Origin: an uncultured Candidatus Saccharibacteria bacterium
GTDB taxonomy: Bacteria; Patescibacteriota; Minisyncoccia; Phycocordibacterales; Zambryskibacteraceae
Reading direction: 5' to 3'
NCBI GenBank assembly: GCA_964349945.1
Contig: CAYGIH010000002.1
Coordinates: 46,937-110,936, forward strand
DNA length: 64,000 bases
Notes under the pieces: generated by a model
What the model was told of the DNA's origin: nothing
Databases searched by the model: none
Seen by the model: the letters and a program-made list of their open reading frames with translations, nothing else
Position numbers and translations under genes: made by a program
Shown: one piece after another, positions 834 to 54,044 of the stretch
Numbering within the stretch: position 1 is the first letter of the stretch
Layout of the letters: each line of letters opens with the position of its first letter

Positions 834-1814
834 ATGAAAGAACAACAAAAAGATATTAGGATTCGTCCTTTATCCCAATTAATGAAAATAGAGTTTCCAC
901 CTGTCGAATGGCTAGTGGATAAGCTCGTGCCTGTATCAAGTGTCATAGGCATATCGGGTTATCCCGCTTCTTACAAAACATGGTTTATTTTAGATTTAGC
1001 ATTAAAGGTAGCTAAAGGAGAAACTCTTTTTGATAAATTTAAAACTGGGCAAACTGGAGTACTTTTGGTTGATGAGGAAAATGGAGAGCGATCGCTTCAA
1101 AAACGATTCAACATTCTTAAAGCAGAAAGTTCTGATCTCCCTTTATATTGGACGTCCCTTAACGAATTCAAACTAACAAAAGATACGGTTGATTATTTGA
1201 TTAAGTCCGCAAATGAAAAAGGTGTAGGACTCATCATTTTTGACTCGTTAGTAAGAATTCATGAAAGCGATGAAAACAGTTCTCGAGAAATGGCTAAGGT
1301 AGCGTCATTGTTAAAGAGATTTACTAAAAATGATATAGCCGTGATCTTTACACACCACAACCGCAAGCCTAGTGGTGGGCAATCAAATCCCGCTCAAGAT
1401 ATGAGAGGTTCGTCTGATTTACTTGCTTCAATAGAAGTCCATATTGCTCTTTCGAGAAAAGTTGGAGGAAGAGTGGTTACAGTTACGCAGACAAAAATAC
1501 GAGACGGAGAAGAATCAAAGCCTTTCCAACTTGAACTGATATCAGACAAAGAACATTGTCATTTCCAATTCAATGGAACTGTTCAAGACAAAAAAGATGA
1601 AGTAATAGAAGCAATAAAAGAAACTTTGAAAACAAGAGACAACCTTCTTAGAAAGGAACTCTTTGAGTGCATAAAAGCGCTAGGTGTAAATGTCGGGAAT
1701 TCAACATTTAGTATGGCAACCAAAGAGATGATCTTAGATGAAGAACTCTTTGAGAGAAAAGGTTCCGGTAATAGTACATATTATTCACTAAAGCCTTTTA
1801 GCGAGAACGAGTAG
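834..1814 (+). CDS. RecA-fold P-loop ATPase, RepA-like (AAA_25/DnaB C-terminal-like) replication/primase-associated protein
   Basis: Walker A-like GISGYPASYKTW and Walker B-like GLIIFDSLVRIHESDE are present, plus a C-terminal HTH-like tail. This is the usual partner of integrases in integrative elements. Confidence 0.55.
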   Translation: MKEQQKDIRIRPLSQLMKIEFPPVEWLVDKLVPVSSVIGISGYPASYKTWFILDLALKVAKGETLFDKFKTGQTGVLLVDEENGERSLQKRFNILKAESSDLPLYWTSLNEFKLTKDTVDYLIKSANEKGVGLIIFDSLVRIHESDENSSREMAKVASLLKRFTKNDIAVIFTHHNRKPSGGQSNPAQDMRGSSDLLASIEVHIALSRKVGGRVVTVTQTKIRDGEESKPFQLELISDKEHCHFQFNGTVQDKKDEVIEAIKETLKTRDNLLRKELFECIKALGVNVGNSTFSMATKEMILDEELFERKGSGNSTYYSLKPFSENE

Positions 1815-1968
1815 ATTGAAATTCTCCTCTTATATAAGGGAAGAATATCAATCCGCTACCCACTTAGAACATATGAATGAGTAATTACACCAAAATCTCA
1901 AGACAAAACAGTGGCATAACTCTCCGTGAATTATCACGTATTCCAATGGATAATTAATCAATAAAATC

Positions 1969-3594
1969 ATGAATAAAACAAACGATAAAAACAGTAAAGT
2001 GGCCGTGGGGTATTGCCGTGTTAGTACTGACGATCAGGCAGATCAGGGTATATCTTTAGACTACCAAGAGGAACAGTGTAAAAAAGCAGCAGAAAAAGAT
2101 GGTTATAACGATAACGAGGTCCTCATTATTAGAGATGAGGGTAAAAGTGGAACAAACCTTAAAAGAAAAGGTATTCAAGAAATTATTGATCTCGCTAAGA
2201 AAAGAGAAATCTCAATTGTATATGTTACCCACTCTGATAGACTGGCTCGTAATATCGTCGACCACGCATTCTTAAGAAACACTCTACGAGCAAACAACAT
2301 AACTTTAAAATATCTAAACGGACAATCTTCACTCGACGACGCTTCGTCAATTATGGCTGACAACATGTTCGCTACGATTAATCAGTACCACAGTGATAAC
2401 ACGAGAGAAAAAACTAAACAGGCGGTCGATACTAAAGCAGAAGCGGGCTACTTCCCAACTCACGCTCCAGTTGGTTATATAAACACTTCTAACCCAAATA
2501 AAAATTGTGAGAAAGTGGCAAAGAGAATCATCATACCTAACCCCAAGACAGGACTCCTGGTAACCGAAGCGTTTAAAACATATGCTACAGGACAATATAA
2601 CGCCTACGAGCTCAATGATTTGATGTATGCAAAGGGACTTGTGAGCAATAGTGAAAAGAAGCTGAGTCCGAGTATGGTTTACGCAATGTTAAAAAATAAG
2701 GTTTATCTTGGTGAAATACATTGGATGGATATACATAATAAAAATGGTAAACACGAACCACTCATAGATAAGGATACTTTTAACCAAGTGCAAAATATTC
2801 TATCCGAAAGGAATCAGAACAGATGTAGAAGACGGAAGTATTTTTGGCTACTTAATGGTTATATGTTTTGTGCTGAACATAATTGTAGATACACCGCAGA
2901 ATGGCACTTAAATAAATCAAAGGCTTACTATCACTGCTCAAATAAGAAAGGTTGTGGTAAATATGTTGAAAAATCTGATCTCGAAAAACAAGTGGCACAA
3001 AAATTCAAACACTTAGAGTTTAACCAAGAATTTATTAATTCAATTATAGAAAAAGTAAAATCTATTTTTGATGAAAGAAAAAATGTATATCAGTCAGCAC
3101 AAAAAACACTACAAAGCAGAAAGAATGCATGTAATGCGAAATTAAGCAGTGCTGAAAATCGCCTACTCGATGAGACCTTATCAAAAGAAGATTACTTGCG
3201 AATAAAAGAAGCTGTGATAGCAGATACTTCTAGGATTGATAAAGAGTTGAATAATCTTCAGATTGGCCATGATATCAATATAGATCTTACCAGTGAGATA
3301 TTAGGCTTCACAAAGAATATATATAACACTTACATGCAGGCACCAGAGGAACTTCAAAAGAAATTCATAAGTCTTTTCTTTGAAGGATTTGATGTTAAAG
3401 ACGGACTTATAGTAAAAGACCGATACTCCCCATTGTTCCAAGAATTACTGAACTTAAACGCCCTCTCCATAAAAAGCCCATATGGCAGAAAAGCCGTTGA
3501 AAACAAAGGAAAAGAGAAACTTATATTAGATACATCTAGGGGTGGCTACCGGGAATCGAACCCGAATTGCGAGTTCCACAAACTCGAGTGTTAA
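1969..3594 (+). CDS. Large serine recombinase (resolvase/invertase N-terminal domain + recombinase domain + zinc ribbon + coiled coil)
   Basis: The N-terminus VGYCRVSTDDQ carries the catalytic Ser. A Cys-rich zinc ribbon (CAEHNCRYTAEWHLNKSKAYYHCSNKKGC) is present and the protein is 541 aa. Its last ~18 codons are read from the complement of tRNA-His. Confidence 0.85.
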   Translation: MNKTNDKNSKVAVGYCRVSTDDQADQGISLDYQEEQCKKAAEKDGYNDNEVLIIRDEGKSGTNLKRKGIQEIIDLAKKREISIVYVTHSDRLARNIVDHAFLRNTLRANNITLKYLNGQSSLDDASSIMADNMFATINQYHSDNTREKTKQAVDTKAEAGYFPTHAPVGYINTSNPNKNCEKVAKRIIIPNPKTGLLVTEAFKTYATGQYNAYELNDLMYAKGLVSNSEKKLSPSMVYAMLKNKVYLGEIHWMDIHNKNGKHEPLIDKDTFNQVQNILSERNQNRCRRRKYFWLLNGYMFCAEHNCRYTAEWHLNKSKAYYHCSNKKGCGKYVEKSDLEKQVAQKFKHLEFNQEFINSIIEKVKSIFDERKNVYQSAQKTLQSRKNACNAKLSSAENRLLDETLSKEDYLRIKEAVIADTSRIDKELNNLQIGHDINIDLTSEILGFTKNIYNTYMQAPEELQKKFISLFFEGFDVKDGLIVKDRYSPLFQELLNLNALSIKSPYGRKAVENKGKEKLILDTSRGGYRESNPNCEFHKLEC

Positions 3595-3613
3595 CCGTTA
3601 CACCATAGCCACC
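3541..3613 (-). tRNA. tRNA-His (anticodon GTG) with the G-1:C73 feature
   Basis: The reverse complement folds as a cloverleaf GGTGGCTATGGTGTAACGGTTAACACTCGAGTTTGTGGAACTCGCAATTCGGGTTCGATTCCCGGTAGCCACC. It has the anticodon loop TTGTGGA, a GTGT/ACAC D stem and a TTCGATT T-loop. Confidence 0.85.
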
Positions 3614-3627
3614 ATTATATGCACAAT

Positions 3628-4179
3628 CTAATTATAACTCGGCGGAGTCTCCTTTATACCAGATTTATGGTTGGATAGTCGAGCCAGAGCATAAAGTATA
3701 CTTGAAAGCCTGTTCATAAACTTGAGCGTTTGTTCTCCAAGTTTTATAGAATTTTCTGCATTCACCCCTACTACTCGCCTTTCTGCTCGACGAGCGATAG
3801 TGCGAGCGACGTCGAATGTGGCTGCAATGTCCGACCCTCCAGAGATGAAAAAAGTTTTAATTGGAGGCATCTCGTGTTCTACGAGGTCAATCCAATTTTC
3901 AACTTGCTTCACCTTCTCTTCACCGATGTGTTTATCTGCACCGGCGAGTTCTGCTTGAACCATAAAGAGATTTTCTTGGAGTATGTGCACTATACGAGCG
4001 AAAGAATCACCACCAACCTTGAGTTGCGCCTCTTCTGACTTCACCTTACATAATCCAAGAAATGAATTAATCTCATCCAAAGACCCAAGTGCTTCAGCTA
4101 TGGCTGAGCTCTTAGAAATCCTTTGGTCACAACCAAAAGTTTTTGTAGTCCCATCATCACCTTTTTTTGTGTATAACAT
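3628..4179 (-). CDS. ATP:cob(I)alamin adenosyltransferase, PduO type
   Basis: The YTKKGDDGTT motif near the N-terminus is the PduO-type ATR signature. The start is chosen at the internal Met of the 3628..4230 ORF. Confidence 0.65.
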   Translation of the reverse strand: MLYTKKGDDGTTKTFGCDQRISKSSAIAEALGSLDEINSFLGLCKVKSEEAQLKVGGDSFARIVHILQENLFMVQAELAGADKHIGEEKVKQVENWIDLVEHEMPPIKTFFISGGSDIAATFDVARTIARRAERRVVGVNAENSIKLGEQTLKFMNRLSSILYALARLSNHKSGIKETPPSYN

Positions 4180-4263
4180 GTGCACAAGAGAGGACTTGAA
4201 CCTCCACGGGTTGCCCCATACGAACCTCAATCGTACGCGTATACCAATTCCGCCACTTGTGCA

Positions 4264-4953
4264 TTAAGTAGAGCTATTTATGTGCTTTACTTTCAAGCCT
4301 ATCTTAGCGAAAGATTGAGCTATTTTCAATCTCTTTCTTGAAAGACACACAACATCCCTTGAATAGTACATTTTGCTCAAAATTTTGATTGAATCAGCCT
4401 TTGCGTATTTCAATTGTTCTGTACTACCCTTTCCATCTTTGGTTATATGCCCTTTAATACTTAAATGTTCAAAAATTCTTTTCTGCAACCAAAGAACAAA
4501 TTTTGGACTAGCAGAAGCAAACTCTGTATAAAACATAAAACTTGATTTCCATCTCTTGTCCCAATAAGAATAAAAGCACCCGTCTCCATCAAAACATCCG
4601 CGCAAAAAATCAAAGAAATATTCATTTGGTATATCAATTGCACCTATTGTCTTTGATTTTGCAGGAGTTAAACCAATCAACAAAAGAAATTCGTAAAATT
4701 TCTTGTTTTTAATTTGCACTCTTAATCCTTTTTTATTTAAACCTGAATTCTTTAAACCAATTTTTATATTTACACCAATACATTTATTAAAATTTTCGAG
4801 CTGTTCTCTATCATTTGAGGTCAGATCAATAAGATATGAGGTTTTAGATAAATAACCGTCTGTCGTAATCAAACCAATAGCATAAGCCAAATTACCTGAC
4901 CATTTTGTATTTATTACTATTTTTGATTTTCTTCCTCTATCCCCCATATGCAA
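4264..4953 (-). CDS. LAGLIDADG homing endonuclease (two-motif, single-chain), free-standing
   Basis: Two LAGLIDADG-like motifs are present: AIGLITTDGYL and LRGCFDGDGCF. Confidence 0.75.
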   Translation of the reverse strand: MHMGDRGRKSKIVINTKWSGNLAYAIGLITTDGYLSKTSYLIDLTSNDREQLENFNKCIGVNIKIGLKNSGLNKKGLRVQIKNKKFYEFLLLIGLTPAKSKTIGAIDIPNEYFFDFLRGCFDGDGCFYSYWDKRWKSSFMFYTEFASASPKFVLWLQKRIFEHLSIKGHITKDGKGSTEQLKYAKADSIKILSKMYYSRDVVCLSRKRLKIAQSFAKIGLKVKHINSST

Positions 4954-5002
4954 TATATTATATCCCGCTCAAGGGGATAGTGTCTACCCTAAGAAATAAA
5001 CA

Positions 5003-5028
5003 AAAAAACTGAAGAAATTCCGGAATTT
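5003..5028 (-). terminator. Intrinsic terminator after rplS
   Basis: Palindrome AAATTCCGGAATTT followed by a T-run on the minus strand. Confidence 0.5.
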
Positions 5029-5421
5029 TTATTCTGCTGATTTTTCCTCTTTGATCTCTTCGACATCCTTAGCCATACGAGTATTTCGCATTTGTCGTCT
5101 GATATCCTTGGCTGCTCGGTCTCTAATATGATAGAGCTTGGCTCGGCGAACTTTGGATCTCTTCACCACTTCTATCTTGTCTATCATTGGAGAATAAAGG
5201 AGAAAGGTTTTTTCTACACCTACTCCAGAAGAAACTCGACGAACAGTAAAGGTGGCTCCGGCCTCCTTGCCATGTTTCCTGGAGAGCACCAATCCTTCGA
5301 AAGCCTGTAGACGAGTCTTGCCCTTCTCTTGAATCTTCTGCCAAACACGAGCAGTATCGCCTGAACGTAGGTCAAGTTTCGCTCTTTCTTCTGTGTTTAC
5401 TGGTGAATGCACTGTTTTCAT
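5029..5421 (-). CDS. rplS: 50S ribosomal protein L19
   Basis: bL19-like sequence ([33 protein letters not shown]...). Confidence 0.9.
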
Positions 5422-5461
5422 AAGTCAGACTAATTTACCACAAGCACTGACCTGTGGCAAA

Positions 5462-5494
5462 TGAAAAGGGCGGTGTCTCCTAGAGACACCGCCC
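5462..5494 (-). terminator. Intrinsic terminator for the GC-rich small gene
   Basis: Perfect 12-bp stem GGGCGGTGTCTC/GAGACACCGCCC, with an A-run on the plus strand giving a U-run on the minus strand. Confidence 0.7.
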
Positions 5495-5509
5495 AACCCC
5501 AGAAAAGGT

Positions 5510-5800
5510 TCAAGCAGCAGAACGCGCCGCTGCCACCATCTGCTCGTACGCAGCCCGGAATCGTGCCTCGTGCTCAGGGCGATACTTGTACTCCGGACGA
5601 GGATCGTGGGGTTGCCCCTCGAGATACTGAGCCCTCGACGGCGACCCTTCGCACACCACCTTGCCATCTTCGATGATAGGCAGAAGGTGACGTGGCGAGC
5701 CGAACAGCATGATCGTCGGATCATTGGCAGCATAGGCTGCGAAGATCGCTGCATCATTGTTGCTTGGGACATGCTTGCCGCACTTGTCGCACTTCATCAT
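5510..5800 (-). CDS. Hypothetical small protein with an N-terminal CxxC (MMKCDKCGKH...), strongly GC-rich
   Basis: GC-rich 97-aa ORF with its own promoter and terminator. The start was chosen at MMKCDK, preceded by a GAGG RBS. Confidence 0.5.
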   Translation of the reverse strand: MMKCDKCGKHVPSNNDAAIFAAYAANDPTIMLFGSPRHLLPIIEDGKVVCEGSPSRAQYLEGQPHDPRPEYKYRPEHEARFRAAYEQMVAAARSAA

Positions 5801-5843
5801 GGTGGACCTCGTGCTTATGTGGAATAGTGAGCCATCTACATAT

Positions 5844-5872
5844 ATAATAGCACCAATACAGCTAAAAGTCAA
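5844..5872 (-). promoter_or_regulatory. Sigma70-like promoter (TTGACT-17-TATTAT) for the GC-rich small gene
   Basis: The reverse complement reads TTGACT tttagctgtattggtgc TATTAT. Confidence 0.5.
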
Positions 5873-6666: not shown

Positions 6667-6742
6667 GCGGGATTAGCTCAGTTGGTAGAGCAACTCATTT
6701 ACACTGAGAAGGTCACAGGTTCGAGTCCTGTATCCCGCACCA
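6667..6742 (+). tRNA. tRNA-Val (anticodon TAC)
   Basis: Cloverleaf GCGGGAT..GCTCAGTTGGTAGAGC..TTTACAC..TTCGAGT..ATCCCGC ACCA. Confidence 0.85.
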
Positions 6743-6776
6743 CGTCCTCTGGTAATTTCCTCCATGAGGACCGCTT

Positions 6777-6848
6777 GTCCTCGTAGTTCAATGGATAGAA
6801 CAGAGCTCTTCTAAGGCTTTGATGCAGGTTCGATTCCTGCCGAGGACA
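6777..6848 (+). tRNA. tRNA-Arg (anticodon TCT)
   Basis: Acceptor GTCCTCG/CGAGGAC, D-loop AATGGATA, anticodon loop CTTCTAA, T-loop TTCGATT. Confidence 0.85.
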
Positions 6849-7196
6849 CTAGATAGATGGATCTATAACACTATTACTACCAGATTTTATTTCCTGAAGC
6901 TTCTTAACTCTTGCCTCATAGAATAAAACAGTCTTTTCTATTGATTCTGCATCAAGTTTTTTTTCTTCTATTGTTGATGGTTTATCTACTAAAAATATAT
7001 TCCCATTAGCTATGGCTATAAACATATAAACACCGAGTGCAAAAACACTGATTGTTAGAGCCAAAAAGATAGTAAACAAAACCTTCCAATCTGCGTTTGG
7101 GCTAACACCCCATCCAAAAAGCTTGCCATTTTTATGCAGATGTAGATGAAGTTTAAATGGTAATTTAGGCATATTATTTAAATATATTAATAGCAA
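6849..7196 (-). CDS. Small membrane protein, possibly pilus-assembly associated
   Basis: Single TM helix; lies at the end of the pilM/N/O operon. Confidence 0.3.
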   Translation of the reverse strand: MLLIYLNNMPKLPFKLHLHLHKNGKLFGWGVSPNADWKVLFTIFLALTISVFALGVYMFIAIANGNIFLVDKPSTIEEKKLDAESIEKTVLFYEARVKKLQEIKSGSNSVIDPSI

Positions 7197-7731
7197 AAGT
7201 CACGTTTAAACGCCAAACTCTGTTCAAAGTTTTTGTGTTTTTATCCGAATCATTAGTAGAATTGTTTAAAGATAAGCTAGCGTTTTCTATAGTGATATTG
7301 GTAGGTAAATTTTCTAAAGCTTGAAGATATCTCATGCTGTTTCCCCATGAACCCTCTGTTTCTGTATTTATATGAACAATTAGTGGATACTTTATCCCCT
7401 TAGTACTAATTTTATCCTGAACTACCGAAACGGTTTTTGTGTCCAGCCCCATATCTTTTCCTAACCGCTCTACAGAATCAATAAGTGGTACAAGATCATC
7501 ACTGTGCACAAGGAGAACCAAAATTTTATCTATCTGTTTTTGATAAATATTTTTTATAGACCTAACAGAACCAGCCAAGGTACTTTCGTTTGCAGCTTCA
7601 TCTGCTTGGTTAGTTATTTGGGAAATATTTTGATTTTCTATTCTGATGATATAAACGCCAAAAATTAAAATTCCAAGTAATATCACAGCCAGGACTCCAA
7701 GTATATACAACAGTAATTTGTTCTTAGACAT
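7174..7731 (-). CDS. PilO-like type IV pilus assembly protein
   Basis: N-terminal TM with periplasmic domain, placed downstream of the PilM and PilN homologs. Confidence 0.4.
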   Translation of the reverse strand: MSKNKLLLYILGVLAVILLGILIFGVYIIRIENQNISQITNQADEAANESTLAGSVRSIKNIYQKQIDKILVLLVHSDDLVPLIDSVERLGKDMGLDTKTVSVVQDKISTKGIKYPLIVHINTETEGSWGNSMRYLQALENLPTNITIENASLSLNNSTNDSDKNTKTLNRVWRLNVTFAINIFK

Positions 7732-7732
7732 A

Positions 7733-8266
7733 TTATTTTGGAGATAGATTAAATTGAAAATTTATATCACTATTTTTTGCAAAATTTGAAACAGGAATAC
7801 TAACTTCAGAAAAATTACCAGAATTATTTAAGATGTTTTCAAAATCATACAAATCCTTTCTTCCTTTGGCCATACCAGCAATAGAGATTGTCGTTGACTT
7901 CAAATCTTTTTTCATAACAAAACTATTTATGATTATCCCGTCCGGTTTTGAATTTATTATCTTTACAAATAATTCATATGGAAGCGCCTTTTCATCAACT
8001 TGAGAAAGTGAAGATATTTCTTTATTTAATTCATCCATCCACTCGACCAACGCATGGGCGTCCTGTGTTGATGATTGATTATTCAATGCATCAATTTTTG
8101 TCTTTGCCTCATTCATCCTGGATTTGGAAATGATGTATGAAGGTAAAAGGGCCACAACCCCAATAAAAAGAATTAGACAAACCCCTCCTAACCCAACGAT
8201 TAATCTGCGAAGAAAATATTCTTTTTTTGCTTTAACTCGCGAATTATCTGTGAGTAATTTAAACAT
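7733..8266 (-). CDS. PilN-like type IV pilus assembly protein
   Basis: Short cytoplasmic N-terminus, TM helix and coiled coil, immediately after pilM. Confidence 0.45.
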   Translation of the reverse strand: MFKLLTDNSRVKAKKEYFLRRLIVGLGGVCLILFIGVVALLPSYIISKSRMNEAKTKIDALNNQSSTQDAHALVEWMDELNKEISSLSQVDEKALPYELFVKIINSKPDGIIINSFVMKKDLKSTTISIAGMAKGRKDLYDFENILNNSGNFSEVSIPVSNFAKNSDINFQFNLSPK

Positions 8267-9296
8267 AACGCGGTTCTTTTTCTGGTAGTGCTACCCCAAT
8301 AGCTACTCCATAAGTAAGCGATTCTTCGAACGATATATCTGGTAAATCTCCAAACAAGGAAAAAGCGTTTACCCAAACATTCGCCACTTCATATTCTATG
8401 TCCATATCTTCCATCAAAGAAGAGACAAACTTATCATCCTTAGCTCCGCGACCAGCAATGAGAACTTTTTCTATTTTTTTACCAGGTTCTCCATTGGTGT
8501 CAGTCTTAGTATTCCAAAAAGCAAAAACTTTTCTCATTTCGCTTTTTAAACTTAATAAATCTTTATAACCATTTTCATCCTTAATTACCCCAAAAGCTGG
8601 AGTGGAGCTAAATTGAACTATTTCATCCTCAACAACATATAAACCTGTCTTGCTTTCTCCAAGATTAACTATTAGTTGAGGCCTTTCGTCTCCATCAGGA
8701 ATAACTGCCCTTGCCAGAGCCTGAGATTCAACTTCAAAGGAAGCTGGTGTTATGCCCGCCGATTCAAAAATACTGGTGTATGTTTGAACTGCCTTGAGTG
8801 GTAACACTGACACCGCTACACGAATTTGTTCTTTATCCTTTATGTTCCCAATTATATCAAAATCAAAAACAGATTCTGCTAAGGAGACAGGAACATTCTC
8901 CTCAATAATAAAAGCCACCCTATCCCTAAGACTATCGAACGGTTCTTTGTCCACCACTGCAGTGAAAAGATACGCTTTTTCTTCAGGTAGAGTAGCTCTC
9001 ACATAATCGAAGGAATGTTTTGATTTTAAATTTTTTAAAGCTTTCACTAGAGCCTCCGTCTCATAAATATACCCCCCTTGAATAACTCCTTTTGGTAAAA
9101 CAACACTATCATAGTTATCTAGGGCCAGGTCTCCAGCTCGATGTGACTTTTTAAACTCTACTACATGTATATCTTGATCAGAAAAAGCTACACCAACTTT
9201 GGATAATTCAAGAAAACGAGGAGTGGGGAAAAAATCAAAAAAATTTCTTTTTCTTTTAGGTACATTTGAAAAACCTGACATGAATACATTATACAC
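8259..9296 (-). CDS. pilM: Type IV pilus assembly protein PilM (actin-like ATPase fold)
   Basis: Size and organisation match PilM/FtsA-like actin-fold proteins, and it heads a pilMNO-like operon. Confidence 0.65.
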   Translation of the reverse strand: MYNVFMSGFSNVPKRKRNFFDFFPTPRFLELSKVGVAFSDQDIHVVEFKKSHRAGDLALDNYDSVVLPKGVIQGGYIYETEALVKALKNLKSKHSFDYVRATLPEEKAYLFTAVVDKEPFDSLRDRVAFIIEENVPVSLAESVFDFDIIGNIKDKEQIRVAVSVLPLKAVQTYTSIFESAGITPASFEVESQALARAVIPDGDERPQLIVNLGESKTGLYVVEDEIVQFSSTPAFGVIKDENGYKDLLSLKSEMRKVFAFWNTKTDTNGEPGKKIEKVLIAGRGAKDDKFVSSLMEDMDIEYEVANVWVNAFSLFGDLPDISFEESLTYGVAIGVALPEKEPRYV

Positions 9297-10551: not shown

Positions 10552-10638
10552 AAATTGTGATTCTTGATATTCTATATTTTTATGATATGGTTTGAACGGG
10601 TCGTTCTTTAGGCCCTCCCTCATCACAAGGAGTCCTGG

Positions 10639-11214
10639 ATGCGTATTCGTATGATGTCGCTCCTGTCCGCGGCGTTGCTCGCTGCGTGCACGAGCGAGCC
10701 CACTGCTCCAAAGGCGGTGGAGCAGGCTGTCTCCACTTCGAGTGACATGATGGCTCTCAAGGGTGGCAGCTGCACTCTCGCCGATGGTCGGGTTGTGGCT
10801 CCGGGCTTCAACGCCCTCGGTTACAACTACTGCGCCGGCCTTTTCAACGGCCCCGCGGATGGAACCGACAAGGTTCTCGACGGTAAGGTCTGGGGTGACC
10901 CAACCTATGCCGCAGATCACCTCGTCATGAAGTGGAACTCTGCATGGGATGCATGCAACGCAAATCGTAACGTCACGAACTGCACCGGCGCCTGGACCGA
11001 CAATGAATGGAATGGCAAGGTGGCCGGAGGAAGCGGAGAGTCCTGGCACTACAAGATCAAGTGGGTGGGCTCGTGCGGATCATACGGCACACCCCTCGCA
11101 AGTGGCGGATACTGCATCTGGAATGAATATGCAGTATTGTTTTCCCACGGGTCAGTGGCCAACCAACACTTCTGGGACACTCACGCCAAGCCGGCCGGCT
11201 ACGGCACCCAGTAA
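10639..11214 (+). CDS. GC-rich lipoprotein (signal peptide with LAAC lipobox), function unknown
   Basis: N-terminus MRIRMMSLLSAALLAAC. The CDS is much more GC-rich than its surroundings, with an AAGGAG RBS and a terminator after it. Confidence 0.55.
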   Translation: MRIRMMSLLSAALLAACTSEPTAPKAVEQAVSTSSDMMALKGGSCTLADGRVVAPGFNALGYNYCAGLFNGPADGTDKVLDGKVWGDPTYAADHLVMKWNSAWDACNANRNVTNCTGAWTDNEWNGKVAGGSGESWHYKIKWVGSCGSYGTPLASGGYCIWNEYAVLFSHGSVANQHFWDTHAKPAGYGTQ

Positions 11215-11224
11215 GATTTCCCAC

Positions 11225-11258
11225 GGGCGCGATGCAATAGCACGCGCTCTTTTTTTAT
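11225..11258 (+). terminator. Intrinsic terminator after the GC-rich lipoprotein gene
   Basis: GCGCG...CGCGC stem followed by TCTTTTTTT. Confidence 0.5.
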
Positions 11259-11291
11259 TATTTAGATTTATTTTTGTGCTAGAATTTATGT

Positions 11292-12813: not shown

Positions 12814-13167
12814 TCAACAAACATCTCCAACTGGACCTCTGTAGTGAAGCTCGATTTCACCCAAGTATCTTGTGATTGAATCACCCATTTCCTCAATGGA
12901 TATAGAATCATCAAATACACCTTCAATCCTGGCCATTACCACTCCGAGAGGCTCTTCGTTTATCCTTGGTTCCGGCCAGGCTCTGAGGTTGAGGTCGTAC
13001 AATCCCCTCATGAACTCCCTGACCTCCTTGATCTCCCAGGGAGACCTTTTGAAAACCTCCTCAGACAATGGTCCAAGCATAACAACATAGCCCTCTCTCC
13101 CCATCCCAGTGAGAAATGAACTCACCCGCCCACCCTCGTTCACCTCGAGCAAAAGATACCGATTCAT
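12814..13167 (-). CDS. Hypothetical protein (moderately GC-enriched)
   Basis: 117-aa ORF with no motif recognised. Its composition is somewhat GC-richer than the neighbouring genes. Confidence 0.3.
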   Translation of the reverse strand: MNRYLLLEVNEGGRVSSFLTGMGREGYVVMLGPLSEEVFKRSPWEIKEVREFMRGLYDLNLRAWPEPRINEEPLGVVMARIEGVFDDSISIEEMGDSITRYLGEIELHYRGPVGDVC

Positions 13168-14565: not shown

Positions 14566-14970
14566 ATGTTAAATCCATTTCCAGAACTATTAACTTATTC
14601 ATTAATGGGGCCCTTTATTCTTCGGGTGGTGCTTGGTGTCATAATCGCCGAGACAGGCGTTCTTAAATTTAGAAGTGAACGAGATCGTTGGATTGCTTCA
14701 TTCGAAGCGCTTCATCTAAAACCTGCCGATATTTTAGTTTCTATTCTTGGGTTCGTAGAAATAATAGGAGCGGTTGGTCTCATCCTCGGTTTGTATACCC
14801 AAATCGCCGCTCTCATTTTTGTAGTAGTTTATGGATTAGAATTATATGTAGAGTATAAAGAAGAACAGGTCTTGAAACGCGATATTGTTTTCTATCTCCT
14901 CATGTTCACCATCGCCCTCTCTCTTCTCCTCACAGGCGCCGGTGCATACGCATACGATATCCCTTTATAA
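14566..14970 (+). CDS. DoxX-family membrane protein
   Basis: Four-TM small protein with DoxX-like topology. Confidence 0.5.
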   Translation: MLNPFPELLTYSLMGPFILRVVLGVIIAETGVLKFRSERDRWIASFEALHLKPADILVSILGFVEIIGAVGLILGLYTQIAALIFVVVYGLELYVEYKEEQVLKRDIVFYLLMFTIALSLLLTGAGAYAYDIPL

Positions 14971-15018
14971 TCTAGACAATAAGCCTATTTTTAGCTATAG
15001 TTTTGGGGCTTTTAGTAT

Positions 15019-15091
15019 GCGCCCGTAGCTCAGTCGGTAGAGCAGCTCCCTTTTAAGGAGATGGTCATAGGTTCGATTCCTATCGGGCGCA
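15019..15091 (+). tRNA. tRNA-Lys (anticodon TTT)
   Basis: GCGCCCGTAGCTCAGTCGGTAGAGCAGCTCCCTTTTAAGGAGA...GGTTCGATTCCTATCGGGCGCA. Confidence 0.85.
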
Positions 15092-15135
15092 CAACTTGAA
15101 TTAATAACCCTGCATGCTAGGGTATTCGAAGATTC

Positions 15136-15687
15136 ATGTACCTACATAAGGAGCCTAAAGTGACCCAGCCACTCATCCGTGTACCAGAACCAGACCCGAA
15201 CTTCGTTGGGCCTCAATCGTGGTTGAATTACCTCAATGACGGTAGTTCAATTTGTTTCTATGAAGACGTGCATTATTACCTGTCGAACTTCTCCGCCTTC
15301 GCGCTTGTGCTTGGTGGAGAACTCTGGATGACCGTGGAGCACGCCTATCAGGGTTTGAAATTCGACCCGAAGCGTTACTCTGCAATCCGTTCACAAATCA
15401 AGGATGCTCTGTCGGCGCATGAGGCCAAGAAACTTGCATACTTGTGCAAGGATTGCATTCGGCCAGACTGGGAAGCTGTGAAGCTCGACATCATGCGGGG
15501 TTTGATCCATGCGAAGATTCAACAGCATCCGTATGTCCAGAAGAAACTTCTCCAGACTGGTGATGCCGTCCTCATCGAGAACTCGCACAGGGACTCATTC
15601 TGGGGTCGCGGACCAGACTGGCAAGGTATGAATCACCTCGGTCGAATCTGGATGGAGCTCCGTGGTGAACTGAGGAAAATGAAGTGA
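15136..15687 (+). CDS. NADAR-domain protein (YbiA-like N-glycosidase/ADP-ribose-processing fold), GC-enriched
   Basis: Motifs SNFS, VEHAYQGLKF, DSFWGRGPDWQGMNHLGRIWMELR are present. The start may instead be the GTG at 15160, which follows an AAGGAG RBS. Confidence 0.7.
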   Translation: MYLHKEPKVTQPLIRVPEPDPNFVGPQSWLNYLNDGSSICFYEDVHYYLSNFSAFALVLGGELWMTVEHAYQGLKFDPKRYSAIRSQIKDALSAHEAKKLAYLCKDCIRPDWEAVKLDIMRGLIHAKIQQHPYVQKKLLQTGDAVLIENSHRDSFWGRGPDWQGMNHLGRIWMELRGELRKMK

Positions 15688-15694
15688 GATTATC

Positions 15695-15718
15695 GAGCAC
15701 CAATAGGTGCTCTTTTTT
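15695..15718 (+). terminator. Intrinsic terminator after the NADAR gene
   Basis: GAGCACC aata GGTGCTC followed by TTTTTT. Confidence 0.6.
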
Positions 15719-16739
15719 ATTTATCTAAAATTTCTGGAGAGAGCTGGCGGTTAACCAAAACAAAAGTGGTGCGACGAGGTAGTTCTTTTAATCTCTTAGC
15801 TCCTACATATGTACAAGCACTACGGAGTCCTCCAAGGATATCACCAACAGTGTCCAATACTTTTCCTCTATAAGGAATTTTTATTTTCTTACCTTCTGGA
15901 GCTTTATAATGTGCCTTACCTCCATTATGTCTTTCCATAGAATCTGCAGAGCTCGAACCATAGTGATACACAAATTTTTTCTCATTCTCTTCTACTATTT
16001 CTTCTTCTCCTTCATCGTGTCCTGCGAGCATACCTCCAATCATCACAAAGTCTGCCCCCGCACCGAATGCTTTGGCTATATCTCCTGATGTTCTACATCC
16101 TCCGTCCGCACAAATAAGTCCACCTAATCCATGAGCAGAATCTGCACATTCAATAATCGCAGAAAGTTGAGGATAACCAACACCGGTGACTAGTCGAGTC
16201 GTGCAAACTGTCCCTGGACCAATGCCCACCTTCACTATATCTGCCCCTGAGAGTATGAGTTGTTCGGTCATATCTCCGGTGACGACATTGCCCGCCATGA
16301 TAATGCTTCCCTTGCACACACTTCTGACCTCCTTCACAAAATCTACGAATCTTTCTGTGTAACCATTAGCTACATCAATACAGAGTAAATATGGCTCTCC
16401 AAATTTTTTAATATATTTTTTTAGAAAATCTTTATCCTCCTTCCTAACTCCAATTGTTATAAAACTAAATTTTTTATCTACTTCTTCAAAGTGTTTGAGA
16501 TTATGAAATTTGTGTAGAGCCGTAAGGAGTTTTTCTTTCTTTAGAGACTTCACCATAGACACTGTCCCTACTCCATCCATATTGGCAGCAATGATGGGCA
16601 CACCACTCCAAATTTTCTTCGTATGAGGAAACTTGAATTCCCTCTCTAAATTCACCTCCTTTCTACTCGAAAGAGTGCTTCGCTTGGGACGAATCAATAC
16701 ATCTGCATAGTCCAGTTTGACTTCATTTTCTATTCTCAT
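15717..16739 (-). CDS. guaC: GMP reductase/IMP dehydrogenase-family TIM-barrel enzyme (GuaC-like, no CBS insert)
   Basis: [11 protein letters not shown] active-site loop, a GGxxxGGC motif and ~340 aa without a CBS pair. Confidence 0.7.
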
Positions 16740-20104: not shown

Positions 20105-20518
20105 CTACTTGATGCACCCTCCTCGGCCGTTCGGGAGGTTCAGATAATTCACCTCCCACACCTCGTTCTTCTCCCCTTCGTACGAAGAGATCGAGTAGCG
20201 ACGGGTGTCGGTGCCGAGAAATTCTTTCTTCTCGTTGTAACCTCTGACAACGAGAGTGAATTCGCCATTTGTGAAAGGTTGGCGAACCAGTGGTGCAACA
20301 ACGTGATCTGCATATGGCAAGCCAACGCTGTAAACGACTGTGCCCGTAAAAACATCAATATACGGCACACAATTGTTTTGCACGGTCACCAGCACTCGCT
20401 GTTGAAGCGAGACCGTACCAAACCTTGGCCCGTGTGGCTGTTGGATGATGACCGGAGCACATGCGCTCTGGCTCATCACGACACCCACAACGATGAGGGT
20501 TGAAAGGAACTTGCGCAT
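20105..20518 (-). CDS. GC-rich lipoprotein, function unknown
   Basis: The N-terminus MRKFLSTLIVVGVVMSQSAC has a signal peptide and lipobox-like Cys. The CDS is strongly GC-rich and preceded by a GGAGG RBS. Confidence 0.5.
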   Translation of the reverse strand: MRKFLSTLIVVGVVMSQSACAPVIIQQPHGPRFGTVSLQQRVLVTVQNNCVPYIDVFTGTVVYSVGLPYADHVVAPLVRQPFTNGEFTLVVRGYNEKKEFLGTDTRRYSISSYEGEKNEVWEVNYLNLPNGRGGCIK

Positions 20519-33855: not shown

Positions 33856-34908
33856 TCATAATTCTATATGCACACTCTCCCCCGTGGTGGTACCTGGACA
33901 ACTAATAATAAGTTTAGGTTTAAACACATTAAAGACAGTTTTATTTTGAAGTTCTGATAGCCTTGCTCCGCAAACCTCGTATGTATAAGTTCTTGCACCA
34001 CTTTCACTAATAGCTTGAAAGAAGGCTCTTAACCCATTATCTGTTCTGTCTTCTACTGTAGCGTCAACACAAGTCCCATTATTATGACAAGAGTCTGCAT
34101 GTGGAACTGTTGGTGGAAACATTTCTGTTACTTGCCACCTACGAACACTCATTTTTTGAGTAAGATTTCTTAATATGGTTAGCATTTGTGGACTAACAAC
34201 ACACGGTCCAGGGTATTTACAGGCACCGTTTGTTGTTCCTTGAGGAGCAACTCCTTTTTGAGGAATGCCAGTTCCAGCAGCGGGAACACAAGTTAAACAC
34301 CCTGTTGGTGCTGGGCCAGGACCAGAACCAACACAACGCCCACCAGCATCTGCAGTTGTTTCGTCACCATTTTTTATTCCATCAAAACAGGTACCGTTTG
34401 TACCGTCACCACATCGACCACCAACGTCTATTCCAGTTTCATTGCCATTTTTTACACCGTCTCGACAGTCAACAGCAGTGCCGACTCCTAAACCACCACC
34501 AATTGGTCCACTCGGCGCAAAAACTTCTATTGAGAGATCAAGGTTTACTAACTTAGGATTAATGGTGTTTAAAAGAACATAAGAACTTATGGCTAAAATA
34601 AGCCCAAACAAAGCGTTGTTTATTTTATCCTTACCATCGCTCTTTTTTTCTATAGCATCAGTTGAAAGATATTGTATGCCACCAATGATTATGTAGATAA
34701 CTGCAAGGGCACTAGCTATCCCTATCCCTAATTTAAAAAGACCAGGAAGAAATGTGGTAATCGTAGCAGTGCCACCGGGGGCTATTTCTGGGACGTTTCC
34801 TGCAATAGTCTCATAAGTAGCTGGAACATCTGCTGCAAATAACATAAATGGAGAAAAATATAATAAAACCAATGTAATCTTATCTAAAAATTTATAAAGC
34901 CGTTTCAT
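33856..34908 (-). CDS. Cys-rich repeat-containing membrane/surface protein (T4SS-like operon member)
   Basis: Tandem ~24-aa modules DG(V/I)KNG(N/D)ET..D.GGRC with several TM segments. Confidence 0.35.
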   Translation of the reverse strand: MKRLYKFLDKITLVLLYFSPFMLFAADVPATYETIAGNVPEIAPGGTATITTFLPGLFKLGIGIASALAVIYIIIGGIQYLSTDAIEKKSDGKDKINNALFGLILAISSYVLLNTINPKLVNLDLSIEVFAPSGPIGGGLGVGTAVDCRDGVKNGNETGIDVGGRCGDGTNGTCFDGIKNGDETTADAGGRCVGSGPGPAPTGCLTCVPAAGTGIPQKGVAPQGTTNGACKYPGPCVVSPQMLTILRNLTQKMSVRRWQVTEMFPPTVPHADSCHNNGTCVDATVEDRTDNGLRAFFQAISESGARTYTYEVCGARLSELQNKTVFNVFKPKLIISCPGTTTGESVHIEL

Positions 34909-35920
34909 TATTGTATTTTATATTAACCACACTTTCCCCAGTTTGCATAAACCTGTTTAAATTTGTAATTCGCAAACCAAGCGATGAAACACCAGATCCA
35001 GAATCTCCTTGTCGTAATGTTATTGAAGTTTTGCTTGGTGTATCAATGATTTTATTATTAAGTGACCAAATATATTCTAGACCACCATTAGTAAGATCAA
35101 TCAATGCGAAATAGAAAGGAAAACCAACGATGCTCATCTCCTTTTCTTTCATAGTAAAATTGTCTTGTAATGATTTTTCTAATCTTAATCCATATAAAGG
35201 ATTGTTCTCATAAAAAAGAACAAAAGGGTCTGTTGGAGCGATGATCATTGAATTTTCCGCTTGGAAGGTTTTATTTATATTAGTCGCTCTAACAGTAATT
35301 TTCATTGGCTGACTAAAATTAGTGTCAGTTATTTTTAAAGAATTTTTCCCATAACCAGAAGAGTTTCCTAAAACGGTACCATCTTTAGACCAAGTATAAA
35401 TGAAATTATCAGATTTAATAAGTGAACCATTGGAATTCGTGTTGTTTGGTATCGCCACTAACAAAACAGAATTTTGTTTAGTGAAAAGAGGAATACCTTT
35501 ATAAAACACAGGAACAGAAGATAGTCCTTTTATTAATAAATCTACTGTTGCTGGTCTGATTATAATGGTTTTCGTAAATTCACTACTCTCTAGGGGTTTA
35601 ATGTTTATTGATACTGTGGTTGGAGAATTTAAATTTCCTAGAATGGTTGAAAAAGACACTTCACCAACACCATTCTTCATAACTCTCCCTTCAACAGACC
35701 AAGTAATAGTTGAACTATTAAGGTCTACTGAATAACTCTCAATATTAATTACCACAGTAGAATTAGGTTTAGGATTCTCGGGGCTAACTTTTATTGAGAC
35801 ATTTTCAGTTAATTCCTTTAATGCATCAGTGGGGGTGAGCTGAGCGTATATAAAAAAAGGGAAAAAACCAAGAAGGAAGATGGTAAAAAATAAGAAACGC
35901 TTCATATATTTATTATACAC
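34892..35920 (-). CDS. Secreted protein (T4SS-like operon member)
   Basis: Signal peptide and beta-rich sequence. Confidence 0.35.
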   Translation of the reverse strand: MYNKYMKRFLFFTIFLLGFFPFFIYAQLTPTDALKELTENVSIKVSPENPKPNSTVVINIESYSVDLNSSTITWSVEGRVMKNGVGEVSFSTILGNLNSPTTVSINIKPLESSEFTKTIIIRPATVDLLIKGLSSVPVFYKGIPLFTKQNSVLLVAIPNNTNSNGSLIKSDNFIYTWSKDGTVLGNSSGYGKNSLKITDTNFSQPMKITVRATNINKTFQAENSMIIAPTDPFVLFYENNPLYGLRLEKSLQDNFTMKEKEMSIVGFPFYFALIDLTNGGLEYIWSLNNKIIDTPSKTSITLRQGDSGSGVSSLGLRITNLNRFMQTGESVVNIKYNNETAL

Positions 35921-35927
35921 TATAGGC

Positions 35928-36326
35928 TTATTTCTGTGTTTCTACAGGTTGTTGATTTCCTTGTTCTTGTGCTTGTCCACCAGACTTCTTAAGTTTTTTA
36001 TCAGCTTTATCAAGCATCATATTTCTAACCCCAATTGCAGTCCATACAGGAAGAAAATCAAAAACAGGGATCATTTCTAAACCGAATCCTCCAATCATAC
36101 TTCCAATTTTTTTTGTATCGAGTTTTACCCCTCGAAGTTTAAGATACAGAGGTATCATCATACCAACAAATATATTTATAAATCTGTTCACAAGGACCCC
36201 AACAGCAAAAAAGTTCAATAAGGCCTGGACCCCATCCACTACAAGCAGGGCTCCTATAACCAAACCCCATTCTGTATTAGATATTTTACTACCCATATTA
36301 AACTGGTTTAGATGCCAAGGCTTCAT
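35928..36326 (-). CDS. Small polytopic membrane protein (T4SS-like operon member)
   Basis: Three to four TM helices. Confidence 0.35.
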   Translation of the reverse strand: MKPWHLNQFNMGSKISNTEWGLVIGALLVVDGVQALLNFFAVGVLVNRFINIFVGMMIPLYLKLRGVKLDTKKIGSMIGGFGLEMIPVFDFLPVWTAIGVRNMMLDKADKKLKKSGGQAQEQGNQQPVETQK

Positions 36327-38145: not shown

Positions 38146-38146
38146 A

Positions 38147-38851
38147 TTATTTTTCTGGTTTTATTGGTTTCTCTGTCTCTCCTGGGTTAAAGGCTTTATA
38201 GAAAAGTTCTATAAGTGCATCTGTGCCTACTCTCTTCACTCTAATACCTGTTCTTACTAATCCTTGCTCTACTATAGACAACCTCTGTTCTAATTGGGTT
38301 CGGTTCTCTTCGAAGGTTGCCTCCTTCTCATCAACTTTTTGTTTAGTAGTTTTGCTTCCAAAGAGAGAGGATAAACCAGAGGCGTTTCCTGTGGATAAAA
38401 CAGGTGGAGTATAGGGAACGACAATAAAAAATTGCTTGGTCATAATACTGGTATCATCTGTGAATTTCTTTATGAATTGAATATATTCTTGAACTTGTAT
38501 CTTCATAAGGTCGTTCACTTGTTTCTTCTCTGTGGCATCGAGGAGGGCGAGGTAGGGCCTTATGTCCAGCCTCCTTGATTGGATGACTATTTCTATGGAA
38601 AAATCCAAAGAATTTAAAAAATCTTGAAATTGAGAGAGGATGGCAGCCCTCTCATCATCTGATTTTAGAGCGAAGTTGACCGACGAAGCCAAGACTACAG
38701 CCCTCATCCCACCATCCTTGAGGATCATGATACCGTCGCGAACTTCTTTTATAGGTACAAATGATTGAGTAGAGCTGTTTCCGGCTGGCATGTTTGTATT
38801 ATATCTTATCTTCGTTCTCCTTGTTCTCTTCCTCGTGGACATCAAGAGCAT
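38147..38851 (-). CDS. VirB4 N-terminal-domain-like protein (possible split or frameshifted VirB4)
   Basis: IKEVRDGIMILKDGGMRAVVLASSVNFALKSDDERAAILSQFQDFLNSL resembles the N-terminal region of Gram-positive-type VirB4. The stop TAA and the next ATG are 1 nt apart in different frames. Confidence 0.45.
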   Translation of the reverse strand: MLLMSTRKRTRRTKIRYNTNMPAGNSSTQSFVPIKEVRDGIMILKDGGMRAVVLASSVNFALKSDDERAAILSQFQDFLNSLDFSIEIVIQSRRLDIRPYLALLDATEKKQVNDLMKIQVQEYIQFIKKFTDDTSIMTKQFFIVVPYTPPVLSTGNASGLSSLFGSKTTKQKVDEKEATFEENRTQLEQRLSIVEQGLVRTGIRVKRVGTDALIELFYKAFNPGETEKPIKPEK

Positions 38852-39224
38852 AACTTAGCTCTTTTAATTTTGATTCTGAAAGTTTAGGCACATAAATCTG
38901 AGGAACCTCTCTTTCCTCTCCAGCAACCCTCTGTATAGGAGCTTTTTCTTCTCTTTTCCATACATATAACCTACTTGAAATCATATACTCGAAAAAAGCC
39001 TGAACGAGTTCTATGAAAGGCTTGGAGTTTGGTCTATAAAACGCAAGGGCGACAGCAAAGGCTAAAATTGGTAAACCAAGAATTATGGCTATATATATGT
39101 TTAAAAACTTGAATAAAACAGCACAAATCCCCACCCCTCCTCCAAGGTATATGAATTGCTTAAAGGTCAGAGGGCCTATAATTTTATCTTCCACATCAAT
39201 GAATTGTGGTACTTTAAATCTCAT
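38799..39224 (-). CDS. VirB3/PrgI-like small two-TM protein
   Basis: Two adjacent TM helices, placed directly upstream of the VirB4 parts. Confidence 0.4.
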   Translation of the reverse strand: MRFKVPQFIDVEDKIIGPLTFKQFIYLGGGVGICAVLFKFLNIYIAIILGLPILAFAVALAFYRPNSKPFIELVQAFFEYMISSRLYVWKREEKAPIQRVAGEEREVPQIYVPKLSESKLKELSYALDVHEEENKENEDKI

Positions 39225-39241
39225 ACTTTATATAGTTTACA

Positions 39242-53830: not shown

Positions 53831-53930
53831 TGCCCATCTCCATGTAATTGGGCTGTGAAAGAGCATCTCGGAGCAGTAGACTCAAAATGGTCTCTTATGT
53901 CCGAGGATTCGTCAACCGACGAAATCAAGA

Positions 53931-53962: not shown

Positions 53963-53977
53963 TTATAAAATTAAGCA

Positions 53978-54019: not shown

Positions 54020-54044
54020 GTACTAAGGTGCTTTGATTCTGGTG

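Follow-up and report, generated by a model that had tools for sequence, protein, structure and literature searches.

The NADAR gene unit at tRNA-Lys

The stretch of DNA analysed here (the window) comprises 64,000 nucleotides of contig CAYGIH010000002.1. By the labels of its best homologues, and with a gene content typical of the group, the genome is of the low-GC Minisyncoccia/Paceibacteria type. As read from the sequence, window positions 15093-15722 are a self-contained single-gene unit which consists of a promoter-like element, a ribosome-binding site (RBS), a coding sequence for a 175-residue NADAR protein of the YbiA family, and an intrinsic terminator. The unit lies between a tRNA-Lys gene and a convergent GMP reductase gene, and the locus has the following features.

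14566-14970, plus strand: DoxX-family membrane protein, conserved left border (Pfam DoxX, 2e-13)
15019-15092, plus strand: tRNA-Lys, anticodon ttt (UUU) (ARAGORN; Rfam RF00005, 73.7 bits)
15096-15123, plus strand: promoter-like element of the NADAR gene (-35 TTGAAT at 15096-15101, 16-nt spacer ending in TGC, -10 TAGGGT at 15118-15123)
15148-15153, plus strand: RBS AAGGAG, 6 nt 5′ of the GTG start, read from the sequence
15160-15687, plus strand: coding sequence of the NADAR (YbiA-family) protein, 175 aa, GTG start, TGA stop
15695-15722, plus strand: intrinsic terminator from a terminator scan (hairpin GAGCACC-AATA-GGTGCTC at 15695-15712, then the T-run TTTTTTATTT)
15717-16739, minus strand: GMP reductase (GuaC), convergent, conserved right border and outside the cassette (NF003470, 512 bits, cut-off 397; Pfam IMPDH, 1.4e-68)

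ARAGORN, Rfam and the map of open reading frames (ORFs) agree in placing the NADAR gene directly 3′ of tRNA-Lys(TTT), as had been proposed in the original prediction, which was made from the sequence alone. Only one long ORF exists between the tRNA and the next gene (15136-15687, plus strand), and it would code for 183 aa if counted from its first ATG. The original prediction had preferred the GTG at 15160 over this ATG at 15136, and the choice is confirmed by several observations. The motif AAGGAG is found 6 nt upstream of the GTG, the ATG start codons of the orthologues from L002 and L003 align with it, and the ATG at 15136 is replaced by ACG in the nearest relative, L002. In addition, an independent assembly (P0001/L004) carries the 175-aa call, with 99-100% identity. 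At the position of the window RBS, orthologues show AGGAG or GAGG.

A clean terminator closing the gene had also been proposed and is indeed present, as a 7-bp G+C-rich hairpin followed by a T-run that shares bases with the stop codon of the convergent gene for GMP reductase. The stem GAGCAC/GTGCTC and the T-run are kept in L002, L003 and L088, with loops TTCG, TGAA and TTCG, respectively. On the promoter side, TTGAAT, TG and TAGGGT are identical in an alignment of the window, L088, L002 and L003, so that the putative promoter has the consensus TTGAAT-N16/17-TGnTAGGGT in these four. The relocated NADAR gene of L173 is likewise preceded by a TGCTAGGGT element. As both promoter and terminator are conserved together with the NADAR gene, the unit consists of promoter, gene and terminator together.

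An inverted repeat spans the -10 region of the putative NADAR promoter (15107-15123 in the window) and also occurs in the promoter regions of L088 and L003. It is kept in these three lineages with differing sequences (ACCCT..AGGGT, ACCAC..GTGGT, GACCA..TGGTC) and is missing from L002. This repeat could be an operator or an RNA hairpin.

Protein family, active site and fold

The assignment of the protein to the NADAR family stands, as it matches the Pfam profile PF08719 (NADAR) over its full length (profile positions 2-163 of 163; E = 9.1e-27) and above the curated threshold (94.7 bits, cut-off 35.1). The protein also passes TIGR02464, the NCBIfam model of the YbiA family (98 bits, cut-off 73.7), and it fails NF053876, the model for the DS-32 NADAR anti-phage protein (76.8 bits, cut-off 240). 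In PADLOC, the only match of the NADAR protein itself is a weak one (2e-7) to the candidate model PDC-M42C. By sequence, the closest solved structure is that of Escherichia coli YbiA (PDB 2b3w, with E-values of 8.4e-22 for the single sequence and 1.1e-35 for a profile of 17 sequences), followed by a Phytophthora NADAR protein that was crystallised with ADP-ribose (8bau; 4.7e-12). An AlphaFold2 model of the 175-aa protein reached a pLDDT (predicted local distance difference test) of 88.3 and a pTM (predicted template modelling score) of 0.81, with a pLDDT of about 98 for residues 50-130. When this model was compared to the PDB with Foldseek, the only significant matches were to the same two structures (2b3w with template modelling (TM) scores of 0.74/0.77, 8bau with 0.72). 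The model has the YbiA fold, in which two small sheets lie against a helical core. The N-terminal ~28 residues are modelled as low-confidence coil with one 4-residue helix, and this region carries the clade-specific motif FxGxxSWLN.

The catalytic set of the window protein is E60, K67, E140, D145 and W148 in the numbering of the 175-aa version. These residues align to E43, K50, E125, D130 and W133 of the P. nicotianae NADAR (8bau), which touch ADP-ribose (PMC11543638), and all five are invariant or nearly so across 60 homologues. The motif of the last strand is LIENSHRDSFWG in the window protein, LYEASRHDAIWG in 8bau and LVEHTENDAYWG in YbiA, and the window protein has a glutamate here (E140). 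A glutamate at this position defines the YbiA family, while the DarT1-linked BC4488 NADARs have an aspartate and the phage gp30.3-type has a histidine (PMC11125620, PMC11543638). By these sequence characters the window protein belongs to the NADAR hydrolases of the YbiA family and has kept its active site intact, and the enzyme would be expected to cut the N-glycosidic bond between ribose and base. We hold the identity and the anatomy of the unit, taken together, with high confidence.

At E <= 1e-3, a database search with the NADAR protein returned 332 clusters. Viral relatives account for 323 matches in IMG/VR, with up to 54% identity, and there are 371 phage records. A metagenome scan with the same protein gave only three distant matches, none of them informative. 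At its C-terminus, the window allele (15660-15687) ends with ...GELRKMK, without the tail ILFPQEKQGGC that is found in P0002, P0004 and P0006.

Comparison with characterised NADAR proteins

With E. coli K-12 YbiA (2B3W; PF08719, TIGR02464, COG3236) the window protein shares the single-domain 'naked' fold (TM 0.74/0.77, root-mean-square deviation 2.0 Å, 34% identity), the motifs TxEHxxQxxKF and (I/V)ExxxxDxxWG, and the family-defining glutamate. It differs from YbiA by ~15-20 extra N-terminal residues, which carry the F-x-G-x-x-S-W-L-N motif and are modelled with low confidence. While ybiA belongs to the LexA-controlled dinG-ybiB operon, the window gene is a monocistronic unit beside tRNA-Lys, and its host is a reduced bacterium of the candidate phyla radiation (CPR). 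In the comparison with the stand-alone NADAR of P. nicotianae (8BAU), the residues that contact the distal ribose and the pyrophosphate of ADP-ribose align (TM 0.72), and neither protein has a link to DarT. However, the two proteins are only 22% identical, and the window protein lacks the N-terminal extension and the internal insertion of the eukaryotic protein.

The DarT1-associated NADARs (DarTG1, BC4488) belong to the same superfamily and would, as far as can be read from the sequence, share the chemistry of guanine-ADP-ribose hydrolysis. However, they have a catalytic aspartate, a basic beta1-beta2-alpha1 N-terminal extension and always a DarT1 gene beside them, and the window protein shows none of the three. 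The favoured functional model is that of NADARs, orphan or of the YbiA type, which counteract an ADP-ribosylating toxin, such as myxobacterial YarT-YbiA and the orphan NADARs of phages (T4 gp30.3-like anti-DarTG1). The window gene differs from YarT-YbiA in that no small ADP-ribosyltransferase (ART) gene follows, the next gene being the convergent guaC. It differs from the phage proteins in having a glutamate instead of a histidine at the family-defining position, and in being chromosomal and syntenic.

A variable interval with a long-resident gene

The gene order S20, RuvA, Fpg, SpoU, DoxX, tRNA-Lys, NADAR, convergent GMP reductase, holA, PolA, TsaE is shared with related genomes. It recurs in L001/L002/L008, where NADAR is about 65-71% identical to the window protein, depending on the alignment, in L088/L089 (57% identical) and in L003/L009 (58-61%). 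In L173 it is found with a rearrangement (54%). NADAR thus occupies the interval between DoxX, tRNA-Lys and GMP reductase in five related Minisyncoccia lineages. GuaC is 86-96% identical among related loci, and the DoxX gene is found in all of them, including those without NADAR.

The spacing between the tRNA and the unit is variable. The putative promoter abuts tRNA-Lys in the window and in L088, while 110 bp are added between the tRNA 3′ end and the putative promoter in L002. The distance is larger in L003, where ~0.7 kb with a UbiA-like ORF separates tRNA-Lys and promoter, and in L001, which has 2.1 kb with two genes at this position, bordered by GCGCACA and GTGCACA. The L001 insert (3878-5870) codes for a 272-aa ORF without assigned function and an S51 peptidase. 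Both the L001 and the L003 insert start directly after GGGCGCACA, so that the 3′ end of tRNA-Lys is the entry point of variable cargo in related genomes. In two more distant relatives, which were located via their DoxX homologues, NADAR is absent: L174 has DoxX, tRNA-Lys and guaC only, and L175 has GC-rich pyrE and pyrF genes 3′ of tRNA-Lys (6731-8263) with a G+C content at third codon positions (GC3) of 0.62-0.63. The cargo at tRNA-Lys in L173 (3442-7676) includes a 1112-aa fn3/GDSL protein. No integrase was found in the inserts at tRNA-Lys in L001, L175 and L173. The tRNA-Lys gene is inverted in L173, L174 and L175. The interval is a true variable hot spot beside a tRNA, and NADAR is an accessory gene in it which is nevertheless long-resident.

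A genome scan with GuaC turned up three more close guaC relatives (L010-L012), in which the context of guaC is different, without NADAR and without an empty site. In these, guaC (81-84% identical) begins directly after tRNA-Ser(tga), and no NADAR is found nearby. Proteobacterial GuaC proteins resemble the window GuaC more closely (54-61%) than do those of other Paceibacteria (48-51%).

A DoxX-superfamily gene adjoins NADAR in three of six independent contexts (window 14566-14970, L006 8585-9010, L007 8468-8872). The three DoxX proteins share no detectable mutual similarity. This adjacency could represent a functional link or chance, three of six cases being too few for a conclusion.

Base composition of the NADAR gene

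As the original prediction had noted, the composition of the NADAR gene is distinct from that of its neighbours, and this applies to GC, to GC3 and to codon likelihood. The ORF has a GC content of 0.507 and a GC3 of 0.598, compared to a GC content of 0.393 for the window and a median gene GC3 of 0.319. The GC3 deviation has a robust z of 4.4 (rank 6 of the 67 window ORFs), and the synonymous-codon likelihood under background usage has a z of -5.5. At third positions, both G (0.31) and C (0.29) are about doubled relative to the background (0.16 each). The gene is not unique in this respect, as a comparable GC-richness is found in 7 of the 67 window ORFs.

The same property is found in the relatives. 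In the five lineages, GC3 of NADAR is 0.60, 0.51, 0.48, 0.48 and 0.51, while that of conserved flanking genes is 0.26-0.46. In the unrelated context L006, GC3 of NADAR is also raised (0.63, mean 0.39), and in L007 it is raised only slightly. As synonymous sites are half replaced between close lineages and saturated in the comparison to L003, an unameliorated transfer cannot explain the GC3 excess. The composition is equally atypical in all five lineages and provides no evidence of recency. High GC is thus a stable property of the gene across lineages and not a mark of recent transfer. Over 11 syntenic genes, GC3 correlates with the number of nonsynonymous substitutions per site (dN; Spearman 0.76, p = 0.007), and GC-rich genes in these genomes are the fast-evolving accessory ones. 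Recombination-linked GC bias or selection might be the cause of the GC3 excess.

Three other candidate causes were considered and abandoned. The GC-rich ORFs are not structured RNAs, as Rfam found only seven tRNAs over the whole window. Selection for mRNA structure is unconvincing (fold z of -1.87, with 4 of 100 shuffled sequences folding equally well). High expression was rejected on the basis of the L19 gene, which has a GC3 of 0.38, and of the S20 genes of L001 and L003 (0.39-0.43).

Rate of evolution and age of the unit

Among the three closest lineages (window, L001, L088), NADAR is 57-65% identical while the flanking proteins are 82-96% identical. This corresponds to a dN of 0.26-0.38 for NADAR and 0.03-0.11 for the flanks, and NADAR evolves at 3-9 times the rate of its neighbours. 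For the two pairs in which the number of synonymous substitutions per site (dS) could be estimated, dN/dS is 0.18-0.29 for NADAR and about 0.015-0.12 for the neighbours. Estimates of dS are imprecise where they approach or exceed 1.

At 4-fold degenerate sites, NADAR and the flanking genes have diverged to a similar extent in two of three pairs of close lineages: identity is 0.50 for NADAR and 0.54 for the flanks between window and L001, and 0.47 and 0.50 between L001 and L088. In the third pair, window and L088, it is 0.35 compared to 0.50. Identity at these sites is near the random expectation for the distant L003. As synonymous divergence follows the host relationships, the gene probably descended vertically with a faster change of the protein, and was not imported from a distant source. 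The six alleles of the locus form one clade in a neighbour-joining tree, if a weakly supported one. The replacement of an allele from a distant donor, which is hinted at by the near-equidistant dN values and by the grouping of P0002 with P0003, was rejected as the main explanation, because 4-fold identity tracks the hosts in two of the three close pairs and because the locus alleles are one clade. An occasional exchange of alleles within the clade is possible (compare the 4-fold identity between window and L088). As the unit has remained in place while at least five lineages diverged, and is absent from two relatives, it is a long-resident accessory gene and not a recent insert.

Search for a DarT partner and for traces of a mobile island

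The original prediction had pointed to the reversal of DarT-type ADP-ribosylation and to NADAR enzymes being frequent singletons in mobile islands. The link to DarT could not be substantiated. A Pfam search of 26 unannotated or GC-rich window ORFs gave neither a DarT nor an ART domain; the rest of the ORFs were taken, by eye, for housekeeping genes. Nine of these 26 ORFs were also submitted to PADLOC, again without any DarT or ART and without a match to a DarTG model. The emphasis on DarT also has to be given up because the catalytic residue is the glutamate of the YbiA type and not the aspartate of DarT1-linked NADARs. The association with DarT1 is confined to the aspartate-type BC4488 family (PMC11125620, PMC11543638), and for this reason a DarT partner is not expected for the window protein.

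The context corresponds to neither of the known toxin-linked arrangements. For DarTG1, an adjacent DarT1 gene is characteristic, and the neighbours found here are tRNA-Lys and DoxX upstream and the convergent GMP reductase downstream. The DarTG1 combination of an aspartate with a basic beta-beta-alpha extension is replaced by a glutamate and an N-terminus of low-confidence coil. The small ART gene that lies directly downstream in YarT-YbiA is missing, as the terminator (15695-15722) and then the convergent gene follow. In L173, NADAR is followed by a 168-aa ORF at 8490-8996, for which Pfam gave no ART match (best E = 0.04, to an unrelated family). Two ORFs, at 4465-4710 and 4753-5211, lie downstream of NADAR in L176.

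The notion of a singleton in a mobile island is correct in one part. The site is a variable hot spot beside a tRNA, with presence/absence at a conserved locus: two relatives (L174, L175) are without NADAR, and others (L001, L003, L173) have extra cargo at the tRNA end. A recent arrival, on the other hand, is not supported, as the gene is syntenic in five lineages and has flank-like 4-fold divergence in two of three close pairs. In the window, NADAR is the sole gene between tRNA-Lys and guaC, and this segment has neither an integrase nor a recombinase. There is no second copy of TCCTATCGGGCGCACA in the window (<=3 mismatches allowed) and no att-like repeat of the tRNA end, and no relevant direct repeat occurs within 14900-15900.

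Proposed role and alternative explanations

We propose, with middling confidence and on the basis of sequence comparisons, that the unit is a long-resident accessory unit of the YbiA type which codes for an orphan hydrolase that reverses the ADP-ribosylation of bases. The enzyme would serve in immunity or repair by freeing guanine (and cytosine) bases in DNA or RNA from ADP-ribose. The modified bases may stem from ADP-ribosyltransferase toxins of other cells, of phages or of the host, and the enzyme would act without a cognate toxin of its own. YbiA-type enzymes also remove ADP-ribose from cytidine-ADPr, and orphan or YbiA-type NADARs act as antitoxin or in counter-defence (PMC11125620, PMC12945103, PMC11257639). 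This role is favoured because viral homologues are numerous and because the pattern of presence and absence, together with the rapid change of the protein, is typical of conflict genes. The homologue context L005, where the next gene codes for a NUDIX hydrolase, has also been counted in its favour.

Several points weigh against this proposal. There is no ADP-ribosyltransferase among the scanned window ORFs which would point to the substrate, and the best curated model that the protein passes, TIGR02464, is named after a riboflavin-intermediate N-glycosidase activity. The clade of the locus alleles is weakly supported (bootstrap 13/50 and 7/50), and the imprecision of the larger dS values has to be added here. 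A rapid change of the protein would also be shown by a weakly constrained accessory gene.

The alternative that deserves most attention is that the protein is a metabolite damage-control N-glycosidase (classical YbiA/COG3236), which hydrolyses ribosylamino-pyrimidine phosphates of the riboflavin pathway or similar GTP-derived compounds and has no role on nucleic acids. We regard this as the less probable of the two roles, but as a serious competitor. It would agree with the TIGR02464 match ('riboflavin biosynthesis intermediates N-glycosidase', 98 vs 73.7 bits), with E. coli YbiA being the closest solved structure, and with GMP reductase, a purine-salvage enzyme, being the neighbour. Some groundwater CPR bacteria have been reported to carry riboflavin pathway genes, and an N-glycosidase gene distinguishes two closely related Parcubacteria (PMC11188291), both of which would suit such a function; the supplementary tables of PMC12455944 have no entry on COG3236 or NADAR. 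However, no rib genes are found among the window ORFs that were scanned or read. The adjacency to guaC is convergent and amounts to the conserved synteny of one clade, while six independent contexts of distant homologues have other neighbours. Presence/absence, fast evolution and the many phage homologues fit a conflict gene better than housekeeping repair, and guanosine-ADPr is a substrate of E. coli YbiA in vitro (PMC11125620).

The two other explanations, decay of the gene and a recent island linked to DarT, have a low probability. If the gene were under relaxed constraint, heading for loss and without current function, this would account for a dN of 3-9 times that of the flanks, for the missing tail ILFPQEKQGGC of the window allele and for the absence of NADAR from L174 and L175. 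The reading frame, however, is intact in all six alleles, 62 alignment columns, with all catalytic residues among them, do not vary between five alleles, and dN/dS (0.18-0.29) is well under 1. Putative promoter and terminator are conserved and the core is modelled confidently (pLDDT ~98 over residues 50-130), so that we consider decay to be improbable. Even less credence can be given to the unit being recent mobile-island cargo at tRNA-Lys which codes for an antitoxin or reversal enzyme for a DarT encoded elsewhere in the genome. The gene does lie directly 3′ of a tRNA and has an atypical composition, other cargo enters exactly at the 3′ end of tRNA-Lys in related genomes, and two relatives are without NADAR. 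However, lineages in which about half of the 4-fold sites have been replaced share one position, promoter and terminator, and synonymous divergence of NADAR tracks that of the flanks. A high GC3 is found in every lineage, the distant L003 among them, so that it is no unameliorated signature. There is no integrase at the locus and no repeat of the tRNA 3′ end, the protein has the YbiA-type glutamate and not the aspartate of DarT1-linked NADARs (PMC11543638), and there is neither a match to a PADLOC DarTG model nor a DarT/ART domain in the scanned ORFs.

Other GC-rich genes and a probable integrated element in the window

A second GC-rich cassette is found at 10552-11290 (GC 0.55), directly 3′ of tRNA-Ser(tga). 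Its ORF (10639-11214, plus strand; GC 0.59, GC3 0.70) is lipoprotein-like, with a signal peptide ending in LAAC, and has its own RBS and terminator. The otherwise collinear L002 does not have the cassette, which was thus inserted beside the 3′ end of a tRNA gene. Searches of the ORF with Pfam, PADLOC and NCBIfam gave no match. Another GC-rich lipoprotein-like ORF (20105-20518, minus strand) lies between the genes for TsaE and a PilB-like ATPase, with a GC3 of 0.61-0.73 in relatives. It is hypervariable, with 33-36% identity between genomes in which the flanking proteins are about 90-95% identical. Two further GC-rich ORFs, at 5510-5872 and 12814-13167 (both minus strand; GC3 0.60 and 0.53), have no family match. 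The latter occurs in synteny in L001 and L002, with 81% identity and again GC-rich, while the L173 copy is 34% identical and has a GC3 of 0.44.

A GC-rich block (52748-54964, GC 0.56-0.62) is located beside an XerC/D-like ORF (55007-55939), which was identified by reading the sequence. The block codes for a 372-aa ORF (52748-53866, minus strand) with a DGLQR motif and a weak PADLOC match to PD-T4-2_A (E = 0.003), and for a 267-aa ORF (54045-54848, minus strand) without any match. This block is possibly a defence island. An integrated element probably occupies the left end of the window (834-4953). The genes there for an AAA_25 ATPase (834-1814) and for a large serine recombinase (1969-3594) end inside or against tRNA-His (3539-3612), and a LAGLIDADG-like ORF (4264-4953) abuts a tRNA-Leu. 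A type-IV-secretion-like cluster that is typical of Patescibacteria is found at 33856-42159 (Pfam T4SS_pilin, PrgI and TrbL/VirB6, and a large ATPase-like ORF).

It is conceivable, but doubtful, that the NADAR unit belongs to a class of integrase-less, self-contained, persistently GC-rich and fast-evolving cassettes at tRNA 3′ flanks, whose GC3 is upheld by a continuing process, NADAR being a diversifying orphan immunity enzyme. The lipoprotein cassette at 10552-11290, pyrE/pyrF of L175 and the lipoprotein at 20105-20518 would be other candidates for this class. GC3 would then be sustained by frequent homologous exchange with GC-biased repair, or by selection, instead of having been left behind by a transfer. 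The NADAR enzyme would counter ADP-ribosylating toxins that are met in an episymbiotic lifestyle, possibly together with the DoxX-type membrane protein. We consider it mildly unusual that a GC-rich codon usage is stably kept by an accessory gene which evolves fast and sits in a hot spot beside a tRNA, a pattern which other small cassettes of these genomes share.

Implications

The window gene adds one YbiA-type NADAR to a very large family. Here, an orphan YbiA-type NADAR is retained among the accessory genes of organisms whose metabolism is minimal and in which a role in riboflavin damage is least obvious. This clean case from nature bears on the in vivo function of stand-alone NADARs, a question raised in PMC11543638 and PMC11125620. 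It also advises caution when islands are called in CPR genomes, as a gene beside a tRNA can keep an anomalous composition stably throughout its lineages, without this being a mark of recent transfer.

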